A stretch of 64,000 nucleotides of DNA, from contig CAVNZM010000002.1 in the NCBI GenBank assembly GCA_963693365.1, positions 15,843,615-15,907,614 on the forward strand, written 5' to 3'. Positions 8,701-11,700 of this stretch are shown piece by piece. Origin of the DNA: Amoebidium appalachense (lineage: Eukaryota; Protista; Ichthyosporea). The notes beneath the pieces were generated by a model. It had not been told where the DNA came from. It was given only the letters and a program-made list of their open reading frames with translations, and made no database searches. A program made the translations under genes and the position numbers. Positions within the stretch are counted from its first letter, which is position 1. Each line of letters opens with the position of its first letter.

Positions 8701-11700
8701 CTGATTTGTTTGTCCTTGGTGTTTTCTTTCCTTTCCCCCCCCCCCCCCCCCATTTTTTCTTGGTGTGTATACATGTGAGAAAGAGGGCTTGTCCCTTCTC
8801 CGGGCCTTGCCTTCAGTTGGCCTTAAGAAGACGGAGGAGAAAACAAACAGCACCCTGAAACCTGCTCCCTCTCCACAGTGTTGTGCAGGAAGACTACCCC
8901 AAGCTGGAGGAAAAGTGCAAGGCGGTGGTGAAGGAGGCGCAGAAGTTCGAGCGGTTGGAGATGACAAAGGATGACCTCAAGAAGATGTTCAACGTACGTG
9001 TGTGTGTGTGTGTGTGTGTGTGTGTGTGTGTGTGTGTGTGTGTGTGTGTGTGTGTGTGTGTGTGTTTGTGTGCGTGTGTGCGCGTGCATTGTGTGTGTGT
9101 GTGTGTGTGTGTGTGTGTGTGTGTGTGTGTGTGTGTGTGTGTCGGTGTATGCACGTGTGGTGGTGGCGGTGGCGGTGCACGTGGGGAGGAAGGAGGGGGA
9201 GGGGGGAGGGGGGTCTGAGTTTGTGTAATGTGTACATTTCTTCTCGAGTGCTAGGCTCACACACACACACACACTCACTCACTCATCACTCACTCACTCA
9301 CTCACTCACTCACTCGCTCGCTCACTCACACACACTCTCACTCTCACACTCACACTCACACTACACTCACACTCACACACACTGGCTCATATAAACACTT
9401 ACGCACGTTTAAACACATTCACACAGGCACATACACACAGAAACACACACACACACTCACACACACACACACACACACTCACTCACTCACTCACACTCAC
9501 ACTCACACTCACACTGGCTCACATAAACACTCAAGCACGTTTAAACACAGTCACACAGGCACATACACACAGAAACACACACACGCGCGTGCGGGCGCGC
9601 GCACACACACACACACACAAGCACAGACAGACAGACACAGCCCCCCCCCCCCCCCCCCCCACACACACACACAACTCCCCCCCCCCCCCCCCCCCCCTCC
9701 CCCCCCCCCCCCCACACATAAACACACACAGTGATGCATTTGTGTTACTAGAAATCCACCATTCTCACTGCCACCCCGCCGGCCACAGTACAACCAGTTC
9801 AAGATCCGCATTATTGACGAGAGGATCGACACCCCCACCACCACGGTCTACCGCTGTGGCACCCTGATCGATCTTTGCAGAGGGCCCCATGTGAGGAACA
9901 CGGGCAAGATCAAGGCCATGTCTGTGCTCAAGGTGTGTGTGTGTGTGTGTGTGTGTGTGTGTGTGTGTGTGTGTGTGTGTGTGTCTCTCTCTCTCTCTCT
10001 CTCTCTGTGTGTGTGTGTCTGTGTGTGTGTGTGTGTGTGTGTGTGTGTGTGTGTGTGTGTGTGTGTGTGTGTGTGTGCGCGCGCGCGCCTGGGAAGGGGA
10101 GGGGGAGAAGAGGGGGAAGCAACAAGAGATGCTTTGGCATGGTGCATGGTGATGGCCGGGGGGGGGGGGGGGGGGGGGGGGGGGATCGGGGATAGCTGCT
10201 TGTCGTTCCCATCTCGGTCCTCACCGATACGAACTGCTCCTAGCATAGCCACTCACCCCCCCCCCCCCCCCCCGGATGGGCTCTGCTTATGACGCCTACT
10301 GTACGCATGGCTGATGTTGCATACTTGAATGTTTGCCTTTGCATGTGTCCTTCGTGTGTGCGTACTTCGTACGCTGTTCCGCATTCAAACCCCCCCAGTC
10401 TTCTTTCAGAGGTGTCCTTTCAGGACAGACCACTGTGTGGAGACCGCTTTACTTCCATGCAACCGGGCATGGTTGCTCTGTGTCGTGCATCTGTAAGCAC
10501 ATACGCTTTTCCCGCTGCACTGCATTAGTTTGCACACACATATTCACCGTTTTGCTCACCTTGCTTGCATAAGCAACCCTGCTCGTCTGTGATCAAGACG
10601 GGTTGACCCTCCCAAGTTCAGTTGATGCTGCTGTCTGAGTTGGAGAGTCGTATATACGCAGGCTAAGGGGTCGAAACTCAGACGCAATTGATGACTTGGG
10701 CCCTCCCTGAGGATGGGCTCTGCTGATGACGCATACTGTGCGCATGGCTGATGTTGCATACTTGAATGTTTGCCTTTGCATGTGTCCTTCGTGTATGCGT
10801 ACTTCGTACCGTGTTCCGCATTCAAACCCCCCCCCCCCCCCCCCCCCCTCCCCCCTCCCCCCCTTTCTTGCACAGAACTCGTCCACGTACTGGGAGGGCA
10901 ATGCCAATGCCGAGACGCTTCAGCGCGTGTACGGCATTTCATTCCCCGACAACAAACTGATGAAGGAGTGGAAGACCCTGCAGGAGGAGGCAGCTAAGAG
11001 GGACCACAGGAAGATTGGCAAAGTATGCACGTGCACACACACACACACACACACACACACGAAAACACAAACACGCACGCAAACATATCTTCGAACACAC
11101 ACATGCACGCGTGCCCGCCTTTGCACACGCGCACACGCAAAAACGCAAACACACACAGACATATCTTCGAACACACACACACATTTGCACGCGTGTACAC
11201 AAGCACACACATATACACACATGTTCATGCAAACAAAGATGCACACGCACAGACACACACGCACACACAGATACACACAACAAGCACACATTCCCAAAGA
11301 CACACACATTTGCGCAAATCATCACACCAGGGTTTTATGCATGCACTCATTTTTGCATGCATAAATGCACTAAACCAAGATCATTCATATGGAAAATCGT
11401 GGGTTGCGGCTGAGACACGAAACAATTATAGCCCTTGTTATAGCCCTTTCCTTGCTTTACTCTTTGGCACACATCCAGTCAACACCATGCATGCTCATCC
11501 ACATGCAGTGATCAATGTGAATACCATGCTACCACTGCATAAGCGCACACACAGAGAGACACACACATTGGGACATTGCATGCCCATGCTGATATAACTG
11601 CACCAGTGGATCCTGCTTGGCAATGACCCACACATTACATCCGTAAGCTCGGGATACAACCGTGCCCTCCCCCGCCCCCCTCCCCCCCCCCCCTCAACCG

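Follow-up and report, generated by a model that had tools for sequence, protein, structure and literature searches.

The locus and the repeat family

The stretch of DNA analysed here (the window, 64 kb) is intron-rich eukaryotic DNA. Its host genes include a threonyl-tRNA synthetase (ThrRS) gene at 7488-17816 (+), one exon of which shares ~75-83% identity with proteins of animals, fungi and plants, a gene with a fumarase domain at 19700-23900 (+), a phosphoglycerate mutase-like gene, whose translation was assigned by eye, at 56300-58300 (-), and a C2H2 zinc-finger gene at 62876-63832 (-). Their introns are rich in CA/GT repeats and in C or G runs, and a direct duplication of ~62 nt was seen by eye in a ThrRS intron (15675-15800). 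Three related segments, at 38714-39618 (-), 47565-48421 (-) and 53685-54245 (-), are 88-97% complementary or identical over ~244 nt; two ORFs that adjoin them match TRAF/MATH domains, and to judge by sequence the segments look like a locally duplicated TRAF-like gene family. The longest ORF in the window is 418 aa.

A family of non-coding repeats is represented in the window by seven copies at six loci:

10274 to 10396 (+): copy A0, the 5'-truncated preceding unit (last 123 nt of the unit), in tandem with copy A; C run upstream
10397 to 10830 (+): copy A, a full repeat unit of subfamily A, ~435 nt long and located within a ThrRS intron; C run at its end, before the splice acceptor
16080 to 16270 (+): copy B2, in a ThrRS intron; truncated on its 5' side 17 nt before the predicted cut, with the core complete
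31965 to 32166 (+): copy A2, in an intron of a RING E3 ligase-like gene; begins 1 nt past the predicted cut
33990 to 34370 (+): copy C, divergent, with core UUGAUGA, H17 at 34185 and Px interrupted by a 3-nt gap; the 5' limit is approximate
54918 to 55277 (-): copy B, H17 at 55088; 5' limit placed where similarity to copy C stops
55790 to 55917 (-): copy D, divergent and 5'-truncated; block C and the 3' strand of the k-turn only

The copies have a common 3' end that is followed by a C run, and four of the seven are 5'-truncated, each starting behind a C-rich run. A covariance model found no copies in the window beyond these seven, its four other matches scoring at most 8 bits each. All six insertion loci (10274, 16080, 31965, 33990, 55277 and 55917), a small sample, are in the sense orientation relative to the nearest host gene, and the sites comprise introns of the ThrRS and RING E3-like genes and the 3' flank of the phosphoglycerate mutase-like gene. 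In the ThrRS gene G runs and C runs are near-equal in number (15 versus 16), despite the sense-only insertions. An upstream hairpin rich in G (34010-34035 (+); ~55255-55230 (-)) and ~115 nt of 5' sequence are common to copies B and C but absent from subfamily A, implying that the 5' half of the repeat unit is modular.

The repeat is nuclear and high-copy and resembles a retrozyme: its units of ~435 nt lie head to tail, the 3' end is constant, some copies are truncated on the 5' side, and poly-C flanks them. It is clearly an abundant family: contigs matching 10400-10830 number 4,676, 10,306, 220 and 10 in four contig sets, contig depth over this interval not being equivalent to copy number. The head-to-tail joint, from 10830 to 10400, is found in three of the four sets (6 contigs of X1, 11 of X2, 1 of X14 and 0 of X9). 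X9 and X14 may be of RNA origin; sets X15-X24, whose word share is small, are left out of these counts. Among the 20 ORFs scanned of the window's 257 there is no reverse transcriptase, nor any reverse transcriptase or GIY-YIG partner for a Penelope-like element (PLE).

The candidate hammerhead core

A preliminary description had placed the three strands of a hammerhead ribozyme in copy A, and all three are present where it had put them, two of them separated by a hairpin linker:

10633 to 10645 (+): block S, comprising the 5' strand of stem III, GUU and a stem I strand; predicted cut between 10641 and 10642
10646 to 10666 (+): linker hairpin L, weak, beginning at the end of stem I and followed by AA
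10667 to 10683 (+): block G, comprising a stem II strand, GAAA and the 3' strand of stem III (from sequence, descriptor and covariation count)
10703 to 10721 (+): block C, comprising a stem I strand, CUGAGGA, a UG insert and a stem II strand (from sequence and descriptor)

The premise of that description, that only circular permutations of the hammerhead are known, is outdated, as its order X-Y-Z is that of the type SGC hammerheads, which have been shown to cleave (PMC10085705).

A relaxed hammerhead descriptor, which accepted any of the six block orders, required minimum stem lengths of 3, 4 and 4 bp and tolerated at most 2 inserted nt, gave four matches in the window. All are in S-G-C order, with H17 at 10641, 16097 and 34185 (+) and at 55088 (-), and a 2-nt UG insert follows A9 in each. 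In the same sequence of matches, stem I has 4, 3, 3 and 3 bp, stem II 6, 4, 6 and 4, and stem III 9, 13, 11 and 13. The classical orders CGS, GSC and SCG gave no match to this descriptor on either strand of the window. Across 710 block-shuffled windows there were four matches in any order and none in SGC order, and shuffling of single elements gave 3 matches in any order in 60,000 trials (~5e-5 per element); when the S-G hairpin was kept unchanged, 32-99 of 50,000 shuffles produced a C block that fits. The window contains no gathering-level match to Rfam. Nested folding of the sense strand gives unremarkable z-scores (-0.6, -0.1 and -1.8).

The core, comprising C3UGANGA9, G12AA, A15.1-U16.1, H17 and G10.1-C11.1, is complete in copies A, B and B2. 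Copy C has U3; a natural U3/G8 hammerhead variant is mentioned in PMC7151607. Thirteen of the 14 core positions are invariant across subfamilies A, B and C, compared with 31 of 91 other positions (Fisher p=4e-5), and N7, a free core position, varies among them. The chance tests and this selective conservation of the core back the reading of the element as a putative hammerhead with its predicted cut after 10641. The non-core part of block C (7/7 positions) and a 5' motif (24/27) are, however, as invariant as the core, so that hammerhead chemistry does not account for all of the conservation.

Scans for relatives gave no loci in viral contigs (three scans), 0 and 6 loci in prokaryote genomes (two scans) and 1 locus in metagenomes. 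These seven outside loci (L001-L007) were rejected as chance matches (best model score 9.5 bits, E 0.12); L001 sits, by eye, within an apparent bacterial EF-G gene. A Pol III B-box reading of GUCGAAAC was rejected by eye against consensus motifs, as were hairpin, pistol and HDV-like ribozyme readings, for which Rfam likewise gave no gathering-level match.

Stems and closing helix

Covariation was assessed on three full copies, representing three related subfamilies (A, B and C), together with the partial copies of the window and contig consensus sequences. A shuffle control on these counts does not amount to a probability, since the structure was derived from the same related sequences. Stem III covaries, as had been claimed, with three of eight pairs changed on both sides, two on one side and every cell paired. 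For stems I and II the pairings stand as first given, but stem II has no two-sided change in its five pairs, and one pair is broken in two of five copies. Those copies are B and B2, in which the alternative partner of the stem II strand (Px, below) stays perfect; in the stem II strand of copy C both G-to-A changes lie opposite U. Stem I, 3-4 bp within G/C runs, shows one A-U/G-C exchange, A versus B and C. U10704 could pair equally well inside block C's own hairpin, the linker hairpin L is weak (-1.5 to -3.2 kcal/mol), and a loose-end consensus from contig set X9 before 10690 (7 contigs, agreement 0.63) leaves ~3 stem II pairs.

The domain is closed by a helix, P0, that starts where stem II ends, just as hairpin L starts where stem I ends:

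10568 to 10575 (+): 5' strand of P0, pairing with 10721-10728; 2 of 8 pairs two-sided, 83% of cells paired

Position 10725 is T in >99% of contig depth, which restores a P0 pair. A second CUGAUGA, at 10723, is a rare allele and was rejected by eye. An I helix in the style of the SGC hammerheads was the first choice as closing element and was dropped in favour of P0: 5 bp are possible in B and A2 and 3 in the window's copy A, the helix is broken in C, its mean pair probability is 0.0 and its 3' strand prefers P0. Copy D could, by eye, form a 5-bp I helix.

A predicted k-turn between stem III and an outer helix

When copies A, B and C are aligned, stem III is seen to run through an internal loop into an outer helix:

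10611 to 10626 (+): outer helix 5' strand (10611-16), a bulged U, k-turn C helix (10618-20), 3-nt bulge (10621-23) and G1b A2b (10624-25)
10689 to 10700 (+): non-bulged strand of the k-turn (3n at 10689, G2n A1n at 10690-91), C helix (10692-94) and outer helix 3' strand (10695-10700)

The outer helix and C helix together have six of nine pairs changed on both sides, with every cell paired. At the homologous place in all three full copies the internal loop is a canonical k-turn, with a 3-bp C helix, an R-N-U bulge, tandem G.A/A.G pairs and an NC helix. Positions L3, 1b, 2b, 2n and 1n are invariant (5/5; p=0.006 against the 31/91 background), and 3b:3n varies among U.U, A.A, A.G and A-U. With the flanking helices fixed and the loop letters shuffled, a k-turn arose in 0.9-2.1% of 100,000 trials per copy. 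Free shuffles gave a k-turn-like match somewhere in 61-75% of cases; a free scan is therefore uninformative, and only the position and conservation of the k-turn count. A loose end from X9 behind 10607, representing a further C-like subfamily, again has the C helix, R-N-U bulge and GA (2 records, agreement 0.85); it lies outside the set that defined the motif, and such loose-end consensus strings are unphased.

By the published k-turn rules (PMC8191799), the loop resembles a standard k-turn of the Kt-7 type in its 3-nt bulge and its tandem G.A/A.G pairs between two helices, the B family having A:U at -1 and A:G at 3b:3n; unlike that type, copy A has U.U and copy C A-U at 3b:3n. Since A:U at -1b:-1n and A:G at 3b:3n are found in B2 and in the consensus of the B loose ends, the kink of the B family is predicted by those rules to fold in Mg2+. 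That of copy C, with A-U at 3b:3n, is predicted not to fold in ions alone and to need protein or tertiary contacts. The kinked fold and binding by the L7Ae family are both predictions from these rules.

The geometry around the hinge is nearly constant. The spacer from 1n to N3 is 16 nt in all three full copies (15 in D), that from A15.1 to 2n is 13, 13 and 14 nt, and block C departs from the outer helix after 2-3 nt. In a crude model a straight rod leaves block C ~90 Å from stem I, whereas a 40-60 degree kink brings the distance to 40-47 Å, compared with a reach of at most 38-44 Å. On these distances, folding within a single molecule needs the kink and probably some fraying.

Competing strands

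Two elements upstream of the k-turn offer alternative partners to the core strands:

10581 to 10603 (+): hairpin P1, with a loop palindrome at 10590-10595 (UGAUCA in A and B, UGGCCA in C)
10605 to 10610 (+): Px strand, the alternative partner of the stem II strand 10667-10672 and a predicted off-switch; 6 bp in A and B, 2 bp in the window's copy C

None of the eight pairs of P1 has two-sided changes. Its 5' strand can pair instead with 10711-10718, giving a helix, Pa, of 7-8 bp in all three full copies, with a mean pair probability of 0.47 in C. Its loop is a perfect 6-nt palindrome in all three, the two-base change in C keeping the self-complementarity; UGAUCA itself was rejected by eye as a hammerhead core against consensus motifs.

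Px stacks better than stem II (-12.8 versus -9.2 in A, -10.8 versus -5.6 in B) and is transcribed ahead of the stem II strands. Its pairs are all Watson-Crick in B, and it fits unphased loose-end variants in B and in the C-like subfamily. In the kinked geometry it lies at 29-42 Å, compared with the 40-47 Å of block C, so that in the crude model its fit is as good or better. The ribozyme reading meets its main counter-evidence in Px, which also underlies the switch model described below. The preliminary description mentioned neither the competing Px and Pa strands nor the palindrome in the P1 loop, nor the setting of the motif in a tandem retroposon.

Discussion

The motif is a real feature and probably a self-cleaving ribozyme, acting in cis or in trans. 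Our preferred reading, to which we give a probability of a little over one half, is that the RNA cleaves itself after 10641 as a single molecule, the predicted k-turn bending the stem III rod such that the CUGANGA strand would dock on the cleavage loop. The kink would shorten the gap between the outer helix end and stem I from ~90 to ~40-47 Å; the gamma shape of the hammerhead could then be restored even though the SGC I helix is missing, as stem I may stack on hairpin L and P0 may serve stem II in the same way. Nascent or circular RNA may be kept inactive by Px, the upstream strand, and by the Pa pairing, giving a switch that would be off in host pre-mRNA and circles and on after strand exchange. 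The preliminary description had left the choice between a cis pseudoknot and a trans dimer open; the conserved k-turn and outer helix, which it had overlooked, favour the cis fold.

How does this element compare with known hammerheads? The S-G-C order itself is already known, earlier reports in the literature searched being from virus-like RNAs only. In the accessible parts of the type SGC account (HRIMA-1 and SGC variants; Eckert et al. 2023, PMC10085705), cleavage proceeds at 0.007-0.19 per min, the I helix is essential and closes block C, the alignment rows have a stem I of 5-7 bp and an S-G linker of ~3 nt, and the origin of the type, by rearrangement or convergence, is left open. Its members there come from metatranscriptomes only, none from the genome of a known organism. 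The repeat shares with them the S-G-C order, two pseudoknotted stems, an extra U after CUGANGA and an A-rich step leading into the stem II strand, and CUGAGGA occurs in some SGC members. It differs in being high-copy nuclear DNA rather than metatranscriptome RNA, in its linker of 18-21 nt with a hairpin (against ~3 nt) and its stem I of 3-4 bp (against 5-7), and in having a 2-nt insert, a k-turn rod and a P0 multiloop with no conserved I helix, where that helix is essential in SGC. It would work like an SGC hammerhead, yet it fails two features of the published family as there described, the I helix and the short linker with its longer stem I. It also falls outside the search pattern given in that source (linker 0-8 nt, stem I 4-7 bp, CUGAUGA only), which would miss it on account of its linker and its CUGAGGA core.

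Among mobile elements, the hammerheads of the retrozymes and PLE repeats described so far are of type I or III (bioRxiv 10.64898/2026.07.22.740005; PMC4209133; PMC7229834). The repeat is like the non-LTR retrozymes described there (PMC7229834; bioRxiv 10.64898/2026.07.22.740005) in its non-coding, head-to-tail unit (150-450 bp, one hammerhead per unit) and in its dispersed monomers and partial tandems. Those elements are of type I, are described in animals and have <45-50% GC, whereas the repeat has SGC order, ~51% GC, a C-tract 3' end and C-run flanks. The hammerheads of PLE pLTRs are likewise type I in that account (PMC4209133), as against SGC here, and the descriptor found no type I (CGS) hammerhead in the window. 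The literature searched, mostly without subscription papers and figures and with supplements in part, held no natural hammerhead with a k-turn and no genomic SGC hammerhead; relative to it, both the k-turn scaffold and the placement in a genomic retroposon are new.

The strongest rival to self-cleavage, although unlikely, is a structured retroposon RNA or hammerhead relic that does not cleave, in which Px forms a k-turn-assisted pseudoknot, block C is held in Pa or folds on itself, and the whole binds reverse transcriptase or another protein. The Watson-Crick Px of B and its fit to unphased variants in B and the C-like subfamily, the Pa helix common to all full copies, the invariance of the 5' motif and of block C outside the core, and the U3 of copy C are all in its favour. 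It leaves unexplained, however, why GUH, the U-A pair, GAA, the G-C pair and CUGANGA stand in hammerhead register, and why the core elements stay fixed while neighbouring pairs exchange. Moreover Px is reduced to 2 bp in the window's copy C, where stem II keeps 6, and strands with two partners are expected to be invariant under the switch model too.

Distinctly less probable is a trans hammerhead, in which the palindrome of the P1 loop would let two RNAs, or two units of a tandem, kiss, so that the S/G loop of one receives block C from its partner. The palindrome kept through a two-base change, the marginal cis geometry of the crude model and the existence of tandem units would suit such an arrangement, and dimeric activity has been proposed for PLE and amphibian hammerheads (PMC4209133, PMC7229834). 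Those hammerheads need a partner because their stem III is tiny, whereas stem III here has 9-13 bp. The fixed arm lengths and the hinge fit the cis fold better, the cofolding gain of 9-12 kcal/mol is to be expected of any long hairpin, and the palindrome is based on two loop types.

Chance resemblance, or another RNA class such as a box C/D snoRNA (suggested by UGAUGA and CUGA boxes, intronic copies and sub-threshold Rfam matches with E 1.5-2.4), is highly improbable and largely refuted, as the shuffle tests speak against chance (0 SGC in 710 windows), the Rfam scores are 12-13 bits compared with gathering values of 40-45, one apparent box needs G at 10725 (<1% of contig depth) and the boxes are not conserved in B and C. 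The k-turn of box C/D RNAs has a U.U pair, as does that of copy A.

Returning to self-cleavage, the scrambled hammerhead parts and the predicted kink that would bring them together make the repeat likely to be a self-cutting mobile element. The steps of its mobility given here are inferred from the shapes of the copies. Tandem transcripts would be cut to release monomers of ~435 nt, which may circularise. The reverse transcriptase of a host retroelement, primed at the internal C tract, could copy monomers into C/G runs, giving truncated or more-than-unit inserts, and priming at that tract would give the fixed 3' end. On a linear monomer copying would stop at the cut, as may have happened in A2, the one of the four truncated copies whose 5' end lies 1 nt from it; a circular or tandem template would yield copies running past the cut (B2, A0 with A).

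A wider claim is possible but somewhat doubtful: that this is the first non-circularly permuted hammerhead of a nuclear genome, driving a new retrozyme-like family, and the first natural one hinged by a k-turn and gated by Px/block C strand exchange, possibly under L7Ae/Snu13 control, with the palindromic kissing loop pairing RNAs for retroposition. If the reading is true, SGC hammerheads, until now confined to host-less metatranscriptome RNAs, would gain a cellular genome with thousands of copies on which their evolution and origin could be tested, and the permuted hammerhead fold would have a second, independent scaffold. Genome surveys with type I-III or published SGC descriptors would then be missing whole retroposon families, and the repeat would offer a natural design for a protein-switchable ribozyme.
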